From IMG/VR virus record IMGVR_UViG_3300044843_000488, positions 1 to 64,000 of that record: a DNA stretch of 64,000 nucleotides; one strand, 5' to 3'. The notes beneath the pieces were generated by a model that saw nothing but the letters and a program-made list of their open reading frames with translations, had not been told where the DNA came from and did not search any database. The stretch comes from a virus. The translations under genes and the position numbers were made by a program. Shown piece by piece: positions 7,209 through 27,751 of this stretch (position 1 is its first letter; each line of letters begins with the position of its first letter).

Positions 7209-7391
7209 ATGCAGCTAGAAGAAGCGTTTCAAATTCTCTACCGTGGCCAGAGCAACGTTGCCCATGTTGCGGCTGCTGTCGACTTGCCTCTGGGCAAAAT
7301 GAAATCCCTCTTCCGCGAATACGTCTCCCGTAATCCGCTTGATGAGCAGGCTTGGCTTAACGACATTGTTATGACGTGGCCTTATGCTTAG
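7209..7391 (+). CDS. Small putative HTH protein
   Basis: NVAHVAAAVDLPLGKMKSLF helix-turn-helix-like pattern; converges on the integrase. Confidence 0.55.
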   Translation: MQLEEAFQILYRGQSNVAHVAAAVDLPLGKMKSLFREYVSRNPLDEQAWLNDIVMTWPYA

Positions 7392-8479
7392 GTCAGCCTG
7401 TCCTGGATAGATCGTTTGAGGTCTTCTTTTTTGCACCATTTCAAATAGGTCTTTTTATGGACGTCAACGCCGTGGCCCATCAGTTGCGCGGCGTCCTCTG
7501 TTCTCACATGGCTGTATGCCTGGTGCGTGTGGAGCCTGGCGGCGTAGGCGTGGCGAAGGTCGTAGCTCGATGGGCTGCTCCATTCAGCTAGGTGCTTCCA
7601 CCGGGTGAAGAAGGTCGAGACTTTGCTGCCCAGTTCCCGGTGGGTTGATTCCGGCACGAACTCGGGTATGTCCCCGGACCGGAGGCTCCAGCGCTCGATC
7701 CACTCCGGATGGGCGGGCATCACCGGGCGGTATCCGGTCTTGGAGTTGGCGGCGATCTCGATCCAACCCTTGGCGTCGGGTCTGGATTCGAGGCGGAAGA
7801 CCTCGTGGTTACGGAGGCCGTAGGTGGCGATCAGGCCCATGGCGGTTTTCCAAGGCCCGTCATGGAGGTTGTCGACAAACCCGACAACTTGCTCGTCAGT
7901 CGGCAGATCCCTGGGATCGAGGATTTTGTCGCCGCTAAAGGTGCTCTCGGCCCTGGTGCGGTCAAGCCAGTCCCGGTCGATCCCCACACCGATCTCGAAC
8001 AGCCGCCGGGCTGTGGTGACGCGACGAAGTCGTTCGCGGCTGTCAAAGGGGGCGCGGAGCACCCACCGTTTGACCGCTTCTGCGCTGACCCCACCCCGAA
8101 ACGCCTGCAGCTCGCGGATGTGGCGCGCGTAGTCGGTGTGGATGCTGGTGCCCCGCCGGGTGAGGTGCTCCTTGAGGCGCAGGGTCAGGGCCGTCCAGCC
8201 AGTCAGCTCCTCGGCGCTCCCAATTTGGGAGGTCTTGCGCTCGATCAGGGAGGGGGTCTCCTCCAGCTCCAGGCAGAAGCGGAAGGCCCGGTTCAGGGCG
8301 TCAGACTCACGTGAATCTATACACGTGGATTTGATCTTCGTGCCATCCGGAAATGGTTGCGTAGCACGGATGTAGTAGATGGGCGATTGAGACGTCAGTC
8401 GCAGCCTAAAGCGGCAGCCCATCTCAGCGAGGACAGCGTTGCGCTCCTGCCAGGCGGCCAGGCGTTGTTGTCTACTCAT
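7388..8479 (-). CDS. int: Tyrosine recombinase / phage integrase (cyanobacterial type)
   Basis: Catalytic residues R (YGLRNHE), K (SKTG), YDLRHAYA, H (MGH) and Y (KTY). ATG at 8479; alternative TTG at 8494. Confidence 0.93.
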   Translation of the reverse strand: MSRQQRLAAWQERNAVLAEMGCRFRLRLTSQSPIYYIRATQPFPDGTKIKSTCIDSRESDALNRAFRFCLELEETPSLIERKTSQIGSAEELTGWTALTLRLKEHLTRRGTSIHTDYARHIRELQAFRGGVSAEAVKRWVLRAPFDSRERLRRVTTARRLFEIGVGIDRDWLDRTRAESTFSGDKILDPRDLPTDEQVVGFVDNLHDGPWKTAMGLIATYGLRNHEVFRLESRPDAKGWIEIAANSKTGYRPVMPAHPEWIERWSLRSGDIPEFVPESTHRELGSKVSTFFTRWKHLAEWSSPSSYDLRHAYAARLHTHQAYSHVRTEDAAQLMGHGVDVHKKTYLKWCKKEDLKRSIQDRLT

Positions 8480-8716
8480 TTCTTTACTCCGCAACGCCTG
8501 TCCAAAATAGGATGAGACTGCTCGCGGCGCAAGGGATCCCAGTCCAGGACTGCTGTCCTGTTTTGTATAGGTGTCTCAAGTCAGTGCCCAAGCGGCTTTT
8601 GCGCGGCTTAGAAGGCAGACTAAGACCCCTGTCAACGACTGGGTTTCTCAAGCCGTCTCTATTTGGGCTTTACTCAGCAACACAAAACTGGATTGGATGC
8701 TGAGGCGATGAAAAGA

Positions 8717-8790
8717 CGGGCCGTGCTGGACTCGAACCAGCGACCGAGTACTTAGAAGGTACTTGCTCTATCCAGCTGAGCTAACGGCCC
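8717..8790 (-). tRNA. tRNA-Arg, anticodon UCU (no encoded CCA)
   Basis: Reverse complement is GGGCCGTTAGCTCAGCTGGATAGAGCAAGTACCTTCTAAGTACTCGGTCGCTGGTTCGAGTCCAGCACGGCCCG, a full cloverleaf with AGTAC/GTACT anticodon stem and CTTCTAA loop. Confidence 0.96.
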
Positions 8791-8850
8791 AAATCCCTTG
8801 CCAGGACAAGGTTGTTGCCACTGTAACGCGGGACCCAAAAAGTTCAGTTG

Positions 8851-8864
8851 GTAACAATTGTTAC
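8851..8864. promoter_or_regulatory. NtcA binding site (GTA-N8-TAC)
   Basis: Perfect palindrome GTAACAATTGTTAC, 8 nt upstream of a TAAAAT -10 box (8873-8878). This is the repressing geometry for the + strand promoter. Confidence 0.8.
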
Positions 8865-8885
8865 AGTTTCCCTAAAATGGGGTCA

Positions 8886-8944
8886 CGTTGAGTGCAGGAG
8901 TGCCTGCACCGCAGTTTGAGCTTGACCAAGCAACGGGGGTCAGG
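8886..8944 (+). ncRNA. Glutamine-II riboswitch (Downstream-peptide RNA motif)
   Basis: P1 CGTTG(8886-90)/CAACG(8931-35); P2 GTGCAGG/CCTGCAC; pseudoknot CTTGACC(8921-27)/GGTCAGG(8938-44). Lies directly 5' of a DUF4278 ORF, the canonical context. Confidence 0.8.
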
Positions 8945-8962
8945 CCGCTGTTGGGTTGACCC

Positions 8963-9145
8963 ATGACCGTTCTCAATCACCTGTCCCTGATCAAGGACCA
9001 GATCACCCGTCACAGGGCTCTGAGCGACGCCCAGATGATCTCGCTGAAGGCTTACCGGGGTGTGCCGTACACCGTGGCACCTCATGAGGAGCACGTCTCC
9101 ACCGAGCTCATGTACAGGGGGCAGCGCTACCACCTCGACCGGTGA
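8963..9145 (+). CDS. DUF4278 protein (putative glutamine synthetase inactivating factor, IF17/GifB-like)
   Basis: Two YRG motifs (AYRGVPY, LMYRGQRY); 60 aa; downstream of the riboswitch. Confidence 0.82.
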   Translation: MTVLNHLSLIKDQITRHRALSDAQMISLKAYRGVPYTVAPHEEHVSTELMYRGQRYHLDR

Positions 9146-9207
9146 CGGTTGGCGGATCGTCCACTATTTGATTAGCGTGCTTTATAGCATTTATTAGAAT
9201 CCATAAT

Positions 9208-9242
9208 GCCCAGTCTGAGATTTCCTCGGGACTGGGCTTTTT
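9208..9242 (+). terminator. Rho-independent terminator closing the DUF4278 transcript
   Basis: GCCCAGTCTGAG-loop-CTCGGGACTGGGC followed by TTTTT. Confidence 0.8.
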
Positions 9243-9559
9243 GACTACTAGTGTTTTCCGCAGTTTTTTCTGTCTCAAGACTGCTGAAAACCGGCGTCAC
9301 GACTGGCTTGACAGATCCGTTTTAATTGTTTGCCGCATTTTTCCCCCCATTAGTCCCCAGCTGCTGTAGGGGTATAAGCAAGCCTTAACACTGTGCCTGG
9401 TGTGCCAAGCGCGTTTCAGACCCCACCAGACCCCATACATTGAATTAGTCCGCTAATTCGACCGATGCGTCGTACCGCTTTTGCCTTGTGCTGCTGGGTG
9501 TCTGAGCTTGCTCTGGCGTGGTCTGAAATGGCGGCGACAGTCAGCGACCGGTTCGCTCC

Positions 9560-9790
9560 TTATGACGCCGCGTCGAAGGACTGGAGGGTTAGTGCGTCAC
9601 GGAGCCGCTCGCTGTAAGGCAGCATCACGACTCCGTTGGGGGCGTCCGGGCTTTTGATTAAGACCTGCTCGTAGGTGAGGTCTGATTCAAGTATCTGAGC
9701 GATCAGCTCGCCTGCGCCCTTCTCGGTAGTACGAACGGTCAATTCCCACTCCATTGTTGGTACATTCGGCTGCATCAAATGTATCGGCAA
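9560..9790 (-). CDS. Hypothetical protein
   Basis: Open frame with protein-like composition; start uncertain. Confidence 0.5.
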   Translation of the reverse strand: MPIHLMQPNVPTMEWELTVRTTEKGAGELIAQILESDLTYEQVLIKSPDAPNGVVMLPYSERLRDALTLQSFDAAS

Positions 9791-23988: not shown

Positions 23989-26135
23989 TAGACAACACCA
24001 TGAGTAATGTATAGATCCACAGTGGGAACCGAAAGCGGTGTAAAGGTGTTATCCGTCGTTGCGTTGACAGGATTCATCCACTGTGCATTTTCGTCCACAG
24101 ACGGTTGAGGACGCTCGGGTAATGCCATAAATGGCTTAGCCACAAACACCAATTCCGTGTTGTAGATAGGTGTAAGCTGCGTGGCTACGGCGCCCGATAG
24201 ATCGGCTTCGTAGTGAGCCACAAGCGTGTCTCCGGCAAGAATCCCTGCGGTAACAGCTGTTGTATTTACTTTAGCCGCTTTCAGAGTGAACGTCGTCGAT
24301 GAGGTGATTGCCAGAACATAGTAGTTTGTACTACCTAGCGACACCCGTTGATTGGGATATAGCCTTAGTGGAAACGCTCTTGAAACGCTGATTTCCCCGG
24401 TAACGCTGTTAAATGCACGGACTTCAATGCTGGTCGTACGGATCGGAAAGTCCGGCGGGCTATCAAACTCAGAGGTTATCGTTTCCCTCTGCCCACTAAA
24501 TATTTCTTCCAGGTTCAGCGACAGTCCTTTTGCATCAACCATGTAACTGCCGATCTTGCGGCCTCCCACCACTAAACGATGGTCATTCAGTGAAAGATCC
24601 AGGGTTACGGTACGCCCCGTGTAAGTTGTAGTGACTGCCAACGTGTTGTTGACTGGAGTCGCGTCGCTTAGTGCTATCTCAGTTCCAGCACTGTCGTACG
24701 AGGTGAGGACCTCGGGGACCATATTAAATGGAGACACGTAGTCTCCATCTCGATACGGCAGCTGCCCGTTAATGTGGCCAGTATTTTCAGGCTTGACCAT
24801 TATCGGGTCTTTCCAGATCTCCAGTTCCACTAGGGCGCTGGCTGTTGCACTCAACTTGAGTGGTTTAGTTACCAGCAAATTCTCCACCAATGCGTTGTCG
24901 TTATTGGTGAGAAAAGGTCTGGAGCGCAGTGTTAAAAGCGCTCTGCCTGCTCCGTGAGTCGTGCCTCCAATCGCGGGATCGGCAGGAATACCATTGACGG
25001 CGTCTACCGTGGCAACCTTGGCCTTGTTCTCGTCACCACCGTCGACAATGACAGATGCGCCATAGCGCTCTATAAACTCGGAACGCGCCAGGTTGCCACT
25101 GTTGGCAATCTCCACCCACACAGGCAGTCCAGGTCTGCGAAGTGAGGGCGCGTCATAGGTGCGCAATCCTCCAGCACCATCGCTTTCCTTCAAATCATTT
25201 CTCTTGGCTCTGTCTGAAAGAATCAGCTCGTGCGCCAGAATCCACCTTGCACGTGGAATCTGTGTGATTGATGTCGGGAGGTCTTTATTGTTATCAACTA
25301 GGTAGAAGTAAATTCTGACGTTGCTTGCTCCGTACCACCCCCACTCAATGAGGGTCATAAACGTCTTGGTCAGATCAAGCTTCTGCCCAGATTTTCCGCT
25401 GCCATCAACTTTGTCTCCGGTCCACTGTGACCTGGGAATCCGTGTTTCATATCTTAAGCCGCTTCCGCTGCTTGTTCGGTAAAGGATCTGCAGTCTGTCT
25501 CCTTCACCATCTCCTTTGGCCTCAACAAAGAAACCGTCGTTGGGGTCACCTACTCCCCATAGGCGCGTCACACTGATCGGCGTGTCGTCCAGCGACATCC
25601 TACAGGCCAGGCTGACACGAACAATTCTCCCCGGCTGGTAACGATATCTTTTCTTTGTGCAGACCCTGGCTCGTTGAAAACCTCCGTTTGCACTGTTGAG
25701 AATTAACTGAGCTGAGCTTGCACTAGGGTTGTATTTCACCTCCCCATACGGGGCCGGAAAGTAAATGGGCTTCGCTTTGGCTATCTGCATCCAACGAGCC
25801 GACTCAGTGCTGTCGACGTCTGGGCGCTCGTCAATTCCAGTGACGTCGTAGATCCAATCAGCCTCCGTCAGCTCATAGGCATCGTTCTGAGTAAGGAAGT
25901 TGTAAGGAGTTGTCGCTCTGGGGAAGCCCAGTAAGTCCCTGTCAACCTGTGTAGGTGCCCTGTAATTGTCAATAATCGGGAGTGTATAGCCATTCCTTGG
26001 CATAACCACTGGAAGGCTCTTTTCCTTTAGCGCTTGGCCACTAGGAAACTCCGAGGCGGCCTGTACTTCCTCCCCATTCCTGGAAATCGACTTTTGCCCG
26101 ATATCTTCCGGGAGTTGGTAGGCTTTATCCGCCAT
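23988..26135 (-). CDS. Virion structural protein (paralog of 26135-27751)
   Basis: SLPVV, DLLGFPR, YQPGRI and EWGWYG motifs shared with the neighbour. Confidence 0.7.
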   Translation of the reverse strand: MADKAYQLPEDIGQKSISRNGEEVQAASEFPSGQALKEKSLPVVMPRNGYTLPIIDNYRAPTQVDRDLLGFPRATTPYNFLTQNDAYELTEADWIYDVTGIDERPDVDSTESARWMQIAKAKPIYFPAPYGEVKYNPSASSAQLILNSANGGFQRARVCTKKRYRYQPGRIVRVSLACRMSLDDTPISVTRLWGVGDPNDGFFVEAKGDGEGDRLQILYRTSSGSGLRYETRIPRSQWTGDKVDGSGKSGQKLDLTKTFMTLIEWGWYGASNVRIYFYLVDNNKDLPTSITQIPRARWILAHELILSDRAKRNDLKESDGAGGLRTYDAPSLRRPGLPVWVEIANSGNLARSEFIERYGASVIVDGGDENKAKVATVDAVNGIPADPAIGGTTHGAGRALLTLRSRPFLTNNDNALVENLLVTKPLKLSATASALVELEIWKDPIMVKPENTGHINGQLPYRDGDYVSPFNMVPEVLTSYDSAGTEIALSDATPVNNTLAVTTTYTGRTVTLDLSLNDHRLVVGGRKIGSYMVDAKGLSLNLEEIFSGQRETITSEFDSPPDFPIRTTSIEVRAFNSVTGEISVSRAFPLRLYPNQRVSLGSTNYYVLAITSSTTFTLKAAKVNTTAVTAGILAGDTLVAHYEADLSGAVATQLTPIYNTELVFVAKPFMALPERPQPSVDENAQWMNPVNATTDNTFTPLSVPTVDLYITHGVV

Positions 26136-27751
26136 TAGCGCTGACCCCAGGTAATGCTGGCTTTACAGGAGTTAGACAGATTGTCGACGGATTTAGCAGC
26201 AATAATAAGTACATCCCCGGCTGTCCCGGATGCTGCGGTGGCTTCCCGAGTCAGATACTGACGGGCAAAGGCAAAAATTTCGGTGAGGTCGACCGTATCT
26301 GCTGACCCGTCGCCTGTAAAGAAACTAGCTAGTTGTTCGCCTCCCGTAAACGAAGTAATTGCGTTCGTAGCGCTTTCGGGGGAGTTGAACTCGATTGCTG
26401 AGAGGGTGCCAGTACTCGTAAACGCGGTTACCGGAGTCGAGGAGGCATCGCTCATCGTGGCCGGATTCTTAAACAGGGCAAACTGAGCTCTGGCTTCACT
26501 GCACATCGACAGCACCAGAGGGAACACCCTCATCAGGTTTCTTTTCGTCTGACCCTGATTATTGGTGATATTCTCTTTAATTCTCAGTGCGAGAAGTGGC
26601 TTGTACGAGGTCGTCCCGATGCTCGCCACTTTTGGACTATCCTTGCTGAAAATTGCAAGCTTGCTATAGTCGCCGCCATCAATGGAGATCTGGGCTCCGT
26701 ACTTGCGAATGTAGGAATTTGCCGACAGTGCACCAGTCTTCTCAATGCGGAACTGCATCGGAAGCGTTGGGTTCCCCAGCGACGGGTATGGGATTCTGTC
26801 TGAGCAGTTCAGATTGTGCGCAATGACCCAGCGGGAGGCTTTTACTGTTTCACCGCTAGGCAGGTTGGCATCGACAGGCACGTAAAACAACAGCCTTGAC
26901 CCGGTACCGCCATACCAGCCGTATTCAATACGGCACATCACCAGATTGGTCAGGCTGAGCTGGTGAGCCGATTTGGTATCAGCGGCACCCAGAATGGTCG
27001 TATTTGCACCGACCATCGTGTCGCCATTCCAAAAACGGCGCGGAACAATCTCTTCCATCACAGTGGGAGAGGTCGACACGAGTTGATAAACGGTGCCTCT
27101 ATCAGTACGGCTCGGTTGAGCGGTCATTACAGCCGCATCAACGGTAAAGGTGGTTGGGTCAGTACCTTGAGCCGTGTAGCCCTTCAGGTGGTCTTGTGGC
27201 CGCTCACCCGAGCTGGTCCGGCGCACGTAGTAGAGCTCGTCACCGACGATCCTCAGGAAATAGCCGTCCGTGCTGTCGAACATGCCAAACTCAATCTTGG
27301 CATTCGCGTCACGGCTCATGGCGACGCCAAAGGACGCCGAAGTAATGCGGCCGGTTTGGTACGGGAAGGCTTGCTTGGTGATCAAGCTAGCCAGCGCCCC
27401 ATTCGAAGCGGACGGGGTAACAAGCACTTCTGCTGCAGACTGCTGCAGAAGGTGATTGACCTGCGTTACCCGGCTTCCAGAGGCCGTTTGTTCATTCTTA
27501 GCCCAGATATTGGTGTCAATATCGAGCAGGTTAGTATCATCAAAAATTGCCAGGGGCGTTTGCACCCTTGGGATCCCCAGCAAGTCATCCCTGACTTGTG
27601 AAGGTGCAGACAAGTTGTCGAGGATTGGGATCGGACTCTGATCCGATGCCACCACCACAGGGAGGGAATTAGCCGAGGTCGCCTGACCAGCCGGAATAGG
27701 CGTTGTGCGACCTACTGTAATTACACTTACGCCTTCTTCAACGTCGGGCAT
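26135..27751 (-). CDS. Virion structural protein
   Basis: SLPVVVASDQ, DLLGIPR, YQTGRI and EYGWYG motifs. Confidence 0.7.
   Translation of the reverse strand: MPDVEEGVSVITVGRTTPIPAGQATSANSLPVVVASDQSPIPILDNLSAPSQVRDDLLGIPRVQTPLAIFDDTNLLDIDTNIWAKNEQTASGSRVTQVNHLLQQSAAEVLVTPSASNGALASLITKQAFPYQTGRITSASFGVAMSRDANAKIEFGMFDSTDGYFLRIVGDELYYVRRTSSGERPQDHLKGYTAQGTDPTTFTVDAAVMTAQPSRTDRGTVYQLVSTSPTVMEEIVPRRFWNGDTMVGANTTILGAADTKSAHQLSLTNLVMCRIEYGWYGGTGSRLLFYVPVDANLPSGETVKASRWVIAHNLNCSDRIPYPSLGNPTLPMQFRIEKTGALSANSYIRKYGAQISIDGGDYSKLAIFSKDSPKVASIGTTSYKPLLALRIKENITNNQGQTKRNLMRVFPLVLSMCSEARAQFALFKNPATMSDASSTPVTAFTSTGTLSAIEFNSPESATNAITSFTGGEQLASFFTGDGSADTVDLTEIFAFARQYLTREATAASGTAGDVLIIAAKSVDNLSNSCKASITWGQR

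Follow-up and report, generated by a model that had tools for sequence, protein, structure and literature searches.

Does a bacteriophage carry a complete nitrogen-responsive control unit of cyanobacterial type, and what would such a unit do there? This question is raised by positions 8851-9242 of a 64,000-nucleotide (nt) stretch of DNA, referred to here as the window, which forms the first 64 kb of the 74,307-bp virus record IMGVR_UViG_3300044843_000488 in IMG/VR. An earlier note, made from the letters of the window, had described the locus as an intact cassette of an NtcA-repressed promoter, a glutamine-II riboswitch, a gene for a small DUF4278 (IF17-like) peptide and a terminator. It had placed the cassette in the lysogeny region of a temperate phage, from where it could tune the glutamine synthetase (GS) of the host. 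The follow-up analysis indicates that the cassette is probably a self-contained, host-derived unit, of a design called class B in the following, on a complete freshwater siphovirus-like cyanophage, and that it follows an NtcA-repressed, glutamine-ON logic.

Composition of the cassette and its place on the phage

The cassette comprises the following features, with coordinates in the window:

8851-8864, no strand assigned: NtcA-type operator GTAACAATTGTTAC, a perfect 14-nt palindrome of the form GTA-N8-TAC, read directly
8873-8878, plus strand: -10 box TAAAAT, 8 nt past the operator and 7 nt ahead of the aptamer's CGUU
8885, plus strand: predicted transcription start, the A directly 5' of CGUU, placed from the position of the -10 box
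8883-8945, plus strand: Glutamine-II aptamer (Rfam RF01704, 46.9 bits against a gathering score of 33, E-value 2.9e-8, model positions 1-60 of 60)
8892-8898 with 8903-8909, plus strand: P1 pairing of the aptamer
8920-8927 with 8937-8945, plus strand: P2 pairing of the aptamer
CGUUG at 8886-8890 with CAACG at 8931-8935, plus strand: pseudoknot pairing of the aptamer
8946-8962, plus strand: linker with a weak Shine-Dalgarno-like UGGGU (GGAG in relatives)
8963-9145, plus strand: gene for a 60-amino-acid (aa) peptide, stop included, with an N-terminal helix and two YRG..Y motifs; DUF4278 family, phrog_545
9208-9237 followed by UUUUU at 9238-9242, plus strand: intrinsic terminator, a 12-bp hairpin with one bulge and its U-run

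All five parts listed in the earlier note are present at these positions, and together they form a self-contained unit that runs from promoter through terminator. The palindrome and the TAAAAT 8 nt later can be read directly. The coordinates of the riboswitch, with P1, P2 and pseudoknot all pairing at the expected start, were confirmed, the start itself being a prediction, and the riboswitch passed the Rfam covariance-model search that the note had suggested, with RF01704. Hairpin and U-run are likewise present at 9208-9242, a terminator that a simple scan of 8500-9600 did not report.

The record has direct terminal repeats and is estimated to be 100% complete. The window encodes a portal, a head protease, a major head protein, a 1612-aa tape measure protein and a J-like central tail fibre, as well as a large terminase, a DNA polymerase, a class II ribonucleotide reductase, a dCTP deaminase and an endolysin; this gene set marks the phage as tailed and siphovirus-like. 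The stretch 8600-9400 is present in 20 sequencing runs, all of them lake or freshwater metagenomes. In three runs not flagged as a possible source, contigs span the neighbouring integrase homologue, a tRNA gene and the cassette with 0 differences. Given the terminal repeats and these bridging contigs from further runs, the cassette is genuinely part of the phage, as the note had claimed.

Four other IMG/VR contigs (L010, the same as L147; L011, the same as L137; L136; L149) show the same order of integrase, tRNA-Arg and cassette. Their peptides are 85-87% identical in two cases and clearly less so in the other two. The terminator of L011 is nearly identical to that of the window, and L136 and L149 have a different hairpin and T-run at its position; the terminator has therefore been kept although its sequence has not.

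Operator and promoter

The published NtcA consensus is GTA-N8-TAC (PMC6212724), and the chance of meeting it within 40 nt of the only riboswitch in the window is about 0.01. The left half of the operator, GTAACA, also serves as a -35-like hexamer (4/6 match to TTGACA), and a promoter scan of 8500-9600 returned a single sigma-70-like site, GTAACA and TAAAAT separated by 16 nt. Relative to the predicted start, the operator extends from -34 to -21 and is centred at about -27.5. Validated sites of NtcA repression are centred at -30.5 (Synechocystis gifA), -28.5 (Anabaena gifA) and -7.5 (gifB), and at NtcA-activated promoters the box is centred near -41.5 (PMC6316151). A repressor function is favoured because the centre of the operator lies near the validated gifA sites and away from -41.5.

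This predicted repressor-type site is backed by comparative data from phages and hosts. Both half-sites and their position relative to the promoter are kept in 5/5 phage contigs of the lineage and in 26/26 host class-B loci. Among the five phage contigs, GTAACA-N5-TAC, the 8 nt to TAAAAT or TAAGAT and the 7 nt to CGUUGA are invariant; the variable positions are the five bases between GTAACA and TAC and the flank upstream. The dinucleotide CA immediately 5' of CGTT is kept in most class-B loci. NtcA as an activator of the cassette was considered and rejected, as no TAN3T is present some 22 nt past the box and initiation at that point would delete one strand of the pseudoknot. As a separate observation, GTA-N8-TAC occurs 17 times in the window, compared with 7.1 +/- 2.6 times in shuffled sequences (0/100 shuffles reach 17), and most of these sites fall within open reading frames (ORFs).

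Riboswitch

The pairing of the aptamer has been maintained by paired substitutions. Over 22 class-B aptamers, seven of them from phages, 97.3% of the P1/P2 cells are paired and 10 of the 17 pairs have changed on both sides, with a covariation score of 0.531 versus 0.17 for shuffled and 0.04-0.12 for slid alignments. Compensatory changes are also present among the phage relatives alone. One pseudoknot pair divides 94 distinct aptamers into 61 with C..G and 33 with G..C, with no mixed case. Host class-B aptamers reach 46.6-54.1 bits with RF01704, a range like that of the window copy.

For members of this family, L-glutamine binding and ON regulation are known, and the type-2 glutamine riboswitch acted as an ON switch in green fluorescent protein fusions, probably at the level of translation (PMC6212724, PMC6698751). 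In 2018, the type-2 aptamer was described as limited to marine picocyanobacteria (PMC6212724). Since all 20 runs with the stretch come from lakes or other freshwater, the family evidently reaches freshwater relatives and their phages. Two candidates for an expression platform, a GGGUCA/UGACCC helix around the aptamer and a helix between the 3' strand of P2 and the region before the AUG, were seen in the window and are not kept in relatives; a platform is therefore not claimed. In the window only, UUGACCC in the linker is complementary to the 3' strand of P2 and could form an OFF-state helix with it.

Peptide gene

The peptide carries the motifs Y31-R32-G33..Y36 and Y51-R52-G53..Y56, and Y31, R32, G33, Y36 and R52 are invariant across 43 sequences. 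A profile search recovered 54 clusters, and 40 of the 43 aligned members match DUF4278 (E <= 0.01, best 9.2e-12). The peptide matches phrog_545 over its full length (E 2.9e-15) and has homologues of 42-46% identity, such as S-RIM8 gp198, in 159 T4-like cyanomyovirus records. The AlphaFold model (pLDDT 82) contains a confidently predicted helix at 6-27 and a C-terminal hairpin at 47-58; no sequence match was found among solved structures and no Foldseek match at E <= 0.001. Differences within the phage lineage are biased towards the third codon position of the plus-strand frame (e.g. 7/2/15 by codon position), a pattern that shows the predicted gene to be under purifying selection. The same pattern rules out the antisense 90-aa ORF at 8861-9133. 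The assignment to DUF4278 made in the earlier note thus stands for the double-YRG ORF at the level of its family, by way of 40 of its 43 homologues, but not for the single sequence, which stays under the Pfam cut-off.

Two classes of host loci

Host loci were sampled by an aptamer-pattern scan of species-representative genomes, from which about 45 chance matches in unrelated bacteria were set aside, by a search with RF01704 in four Synechococcus genomes and by a search with the peptide profile in 301 genomes of the same family. The Cyanobiaceae loci examined fall into two classes without exception. In class A, the commoner one among the loci listed, the -10 box is followed by GTAGCAnnnGCTAC, which starts 16-23 nt before CGUU and lies over the transcription start; among the matches listed, the box has this position in 75/82 distinct host loci. 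The pseudoknot is CGUUC/GAACG, and the peptides open directly with the repeats (MTLTYRG...). A box over the transcription start was described for MED4 by Klahn et al. (PMC6212724), and the same placement follows from the start of yfr6, which lies about 20 nt 5' of the motif.

In class B, the box is a perfect GTA-N8-TAC beginning 33-38 nt ahead of CGUU; 7-11 nt separate it from a -10-like hexamer, after which there are a further 7 nt. A perfect box has this position in 26/26 distinct Cyanobiaceae host loci, with operator centres at -26.5 to -30.5 from the predicted start. The pseudoknot is CGUUG/CAACG, most loci have GGAG about 8 nt ahead of the AUG, and the peptides follow the pattern MNxLxLI(K/R)...AQ..AKAYRGVxY...YRGxxY. 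Full-length matches to class-B peptides (E <= 3e-16) occur in 41/301 sampled host genomes. The closest copy in a host, L193, is flanked by a gene for a thiol-disulfide-type membrane protein and a GGDEF gene, with no adjoining tRNA, and the nearest integrase homologue in its genome is about 200 kb away. The window and its four phage relatives are class B in every feature. As this design is found in chromosomal host loci, the phage unit is best explained as a captured host unit, promoter included.

These host counts are neither unbiased nor independent, since class A is mostly one Prochlorococcus orthologue and most class-B loci were found via the peptide, and this has to be weighed against the proposed reading together with several further points. 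The window peptide on its own scores 22.1 bits (E 2e-4) with Pfam DUF4278 (PF14105), for which the cut-off is 25.3, and the stretch of IF17 that DUF4278 represents, its N-terminal part, can be dispensed with in GS inactivation (PMC6316151). The Shine-Dalgarno sequence of the window (GGGU) is weaker than the GGAG of its relatives, and no conserved OFF-state helix was found. No RNA dataset is among the listed runs that contain the stretch 8600-9400. Finally, the integrase homologue is the single line of evidence for a temperate lifestyle. With these points taken into account, we still consider a host-derived class-B unit the likely explanation.

Two side observations concern class-A aptamers. 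Ahead of one of them, on the phage contig L143 (IMGVR_UViG_3300020467_000112, about 7530-7582, minus strand), a double operator places two NtcA boxes on either side of the -10 box: GTAGTAATCGCTAC 8 nt before TATAAT, in the class-B position, and GTAGTTTCAGCTAC after it, in the class-A position. Moreover, a third peptide type follows class-A aptamers in L075, L077, L133 and L140, on both host and phage contigs, with an N-terminal MNxLxLL(K/Q) helix and a single C-terminal YRG (e.g. MNALGLLKQRELR...KYRGVTYE).

Proposed mechanism

If transcription starts near 8885, NtcA would cover the -35 element and the spacer and would be able only to block RNA polymerase, as at gifA. Under nitrogen limitation, with high 2-oxoglutarate, NtcA would shut the cassette promoter, and glutamine would switch the riboswitch ON and permit translation of the peptide. 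Since NtcA repression is combined with an ON riboswitch, the cassette would act as an AND gate, with the peptide made only under low 2-oxoglutarate together with high glutamine, i.e. when nitrogen is plentiful.

Function of the peptide

A role of the peptide in nitrogen assimilation is likely. A more specific alternative is that it is an IF17-like inactivating factor (IF) lowering the GS activity of the host in lysogeny or infection. The peptide shares DUF4278 with IF17, the combination of NtcA and glutamine follows the same logic as at gifB, and the conserved R32 and R52 in an Arg-rich sequence would fit the electrostatic binding mode of the IFs. However, the shared domain is precisely the dispensable part of IF17 mentioned above, and Prochlorococcus IF17-like proteins do not have the C-terminal GS-binding residues; earlier work argued against IF-type GS control in this clade (PMC6212724, PMC6316151). 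The missing fold and structure matches do not help this proposal either. GS control by such peptides in picocyanobacteria has been termed unclear (PMC6316151), and no later publication testing it was found.

For these reasons, namely the dispensable domain and the Prochlorococcus homologues without the C-terminal residues, the peptide is not classed as an inactivating factor. An "IF17-like GS inhibitor" is a hypothesis, doubtful at present, and is not used as an annotation, and GS may tentatively be listed as one candidate target. The tuning of host GS suggested in the earlier note is accordingly not established.

Integrase, tRNA-Arg and lysogeny

Two features adjoin the cassette:

7388-8494, minus strand: divergent tyrosine-integrase homologue of 368 aa, with homology to cyanobacterial integrases
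8715-8791, minus strand: complete tRNA-Arg(TCT) gene, transcribed away from the cassette and a possible attachment-site partner of the integrase

The 368-aa ORF has no Pfam, PHROG or PDB match of its own, even at E 10. It is similar to cyanobacterial "site-specific integrase" proteins (E 1e-27 to 1e-23), and its integrase homologues carry PF27132/PF27551, some of them also PF00589. The tRNA-Arg gene adjoins the cassette in each of the five related phage contigs. A search of 401 sampled Cyanobiaceae genomes found no close copy of the integrase and no prophage (best match 32% identical), and host tRNA-Arg genes in five genomes gave no attachment-site match, being only 82-85% identical; these negatives concern the genomes searched and do not prove absence. 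The small ORFs adjoining the integrase showed no helix-turn-helix or CI-like Pfam match, and most of them had no match at all. A temperate lifestyle is plausible, but the "temperate phage lysogeny region" of the earlier note comes down to a divergent integrase homologue and a tRNA-Arg gene, with no repressor recognised. If integration took place within the tRNA, the cassette would lie at the end of the prophage opposite the integrase and beside the tRNA, a typical location of conversion genes.

Sequencing reads contain loose ends at the tRNA (8715-8787), which mostly resemble tRNAs of other organisms and are not readable as attachment junctions. In the runs X1 and X20, one contig each aligns with the window beginning at the tRNA-Arg 3' end, and on the integrase side it continues with 255 unlike letters; these contigs could be a tRNA locus of a host or another phage, or an attachment junction. 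A tRNA-Gln(TTG) called by ARAGORN at 26988-27066 (minus strand) is probably a false positive, as it lies inside a 538-aa ORF (26135-27751) and has no Rfam tRNA match at the gathering score.

On the minus strand, a TAN3T hexamer is found at 8820-8825, about 30 nt before the tRNA-Arg (TACAGT; TAAAGT in L149 and TAGATT in L136), and in 5/5 phage contigs it lies 25-26 nt from the NtcA box. It is probably the promoter of the tRNA. One could go further and assume that the single NtcA box serves two promoters, repressing the cassette and activating a divergent tRNA-Arg/integrase promoter, which would couple lysogeny to nitrogen. The distance is kept although the hexamer and the spacer sequence vary, and the hexamer has no -35-like partner. 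At NtcA-activated promoters, the box lies about 22 nt from the -10 element. The 25-26 nt observed here put the centre of the box at about -44.5, some 3 nt beyond -41.5 and off the usual face of the DNA; the tRNA needs a -10 box at this place in any case, and the fixed length may simply reflect few insertions and deletions. Control of two promoters by one box is thus rather unlikely.

The same low expectation applies to a bolder reading in which the two cassette designs evolve separately, class B has been captured by three phage lineages and the shared NtcA box ties integration to nitrogen. The capturing lineages would then be the integrase-bearing siphovirus group, the T4-like myoviruses with phrog_545 and contigs such as L142.

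Identity of the palindrome and reality of the cassette

It is very unlikely that the palindrome is a mere -35-like element, the site of another factor or a part of an attachment site. Such a reading could point to the 4/6 match of GTAACA to TTGACA with its 16-nt spacer, and to the distance of only 60 nt between the box and a tRNA that adjoins an integrase. However, the TAC half shows the same degree of conservation as GTAACA, and the 5 nt separating the two are variable. GTA-N8-TAC occurs at the same offset in all 26 host loci, of which the two checked have neither tRNA nor integrase, and the motif exactly equals the published NtcA consensus (PMC6212724). An inert passenger or an assembly artefact, with host DNA joined to a phage contig, is scarcely credible: the G+C content of 55-57% around 7-10 kb is somewhat higher than in the adjacent phage DNA and the unit is clearly host-like, but the same junctions recur without differences in several runs and in four other phage contigs, compensatory changes and third-position bias have accumulated within the phage lineage, and members of the peptide family have been retained in 159 records of cyanomyoviruses as well. 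An NtcA-repressed class-B unit that belongs to the phage therefore remains the preferred reading.

Comparison with known systems

The nearest published design is that of Prochlorococcus MED4 PMM1846 and yfr6-type loci, in which an NtcA box, a type-2 riboswitch and a DUF4278 gene follow each other in the same order as in the phage unit (PMC6212724, PMC2864571). Both belong to the same Rfam family, encode peptides of the YRG..Y superfamily and are presumably expressed under nitrogen excess. However, the box of the MED4-type loci comes after the -10 box and over the start (-16 to -23), while that of the phage precedes the -10 box (offset -35, centre about -27.5). The deciding pseudoknot pair is C-G in the former and G-C in the latter, and MED4-type peptides begin at the YRG repeats, whereas the phage peptide starts with an N-terminal helix. 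Moreover, the unit of the window is located on a phage.

With gifA and gifB, the phage unit shares NtcA repression from within the core promoter; in addition, translation of gifB is turned on by a glutamine riboswitch, and its product IF17 contains DUF4278 (PMC6212724, PMC6316151). The aptamer of gifB is of type 1 (RF01739) and that of the phage is Glutamine-II. The operator position of the phage is gifA-like, but gifA has no riboswitch. IF17 has 149 aa and its GS-binding part in the C-terminal half, which is absent from the 60-aa phage peptide, and GS inhibition is proven for IF7 and IF17 (PMC6212724, PMC6316151) but hypothetical for the phage peptide.

Units in T4-like cyanomyoviruses (S-SM2 SSM2_270/271, S-RIM8 gp198; T4-GC 937; phrog_545) encode the same peptide subfamily with a helix and two YRG motifs, downstream of a glutamine-riboswitch-like leader, and their peptides group with the lineage of the window in the tree (84/99 support). 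Their aptamer is compact and stays under the Rfam threshold with 23-30 bits, while the window has one canonical aptamer directly before the gene. They also differ by an unrelated small ORF (T4-GC 430) between aptamer and peptide gene and by the absence of a neighbouring integrase or tRNA-Arg. In S-SM2 (L004, 1205-1500) and in L002-L009, CGUUCAUCCC occurs as a repeat immediately ahead of the first AUG, and GGAACGGG stands just past the first ORF. A compact aptamer of this myovirus type, almost in the S-SM2 form, was also seen in a host assembly contig of a Synechococcus metagenome-assembled genome (L166, G002:C1:190949-190996), where it could represent either a phage remnant or DNA of a phage that was binned together with the genome.

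Host class-B loci such as L193 in G062 and L168 in G225 resemble the phage unit most closely, with a box at -33 to -38, a -10-like hexamer 7 nt before CGUUGA, CAACG, a GGAG some 8 nt 5' of the start codon and a peptide of a helix and two YRG motifs. They are chromosomal, and neither L193 nor L157, the two that were checked, has an adjoining integrase or tRNA. Their boxes are mostly GTAGCAACCGCTAC, with GTAGCA as the left half, and their -10 hexamers are weak (TTGAAT, CACACT), in contrast to GTAACA and TAAAAT or TAAGAT in the phage lineage. As the phage hexamers are closer to the sigma-70 consensus, this comparison suggests a stronger core promoter than in the hosts once repression is lifted.

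In view of these systems, the novelty claimed in the earlier note was overstated. The combination of an NtcA box, a type-2 glutamine riboswitch and an IF17-like gene had been published for MED4 (PMC6212724), knowledge of glutamine riboswitches in cyanophages dates back to 2010, their presence in T4-like cyanophages is on record (PMC9964418), and homologous peptides occur in 159 cyanomyovirus records. What is added to this known kind of system are three increments: the occurrence of the unit with a single, canonical aptamer in a freshwater siphovirus lineage that bears an integrase, the split into class A and class B with a gifA-like operator position in the latter, and the connection of phrog_545 with both the DUF4278 family and the peptide type of class B. 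No paper describing any of the three was found. The locus is a clean case of a phage acquiring a whole host regulatory unit, with operator, riboswitch, effector gene and terminator, and implies that the phage benefits from reading the nitrogen status of the host via both 2-oxoglutarate, through NtcA, and glutamine, through the RNA. For experimenters, the "Downstream-peptide" loci can now be sorted into two designs by operator position, one pseudoknot pair and peptide architecture. phrog_545, a large phage family annotated with unknown function, is tied to DUF4278, and the phage copies provide compact constructs for probing the function of the peptide.

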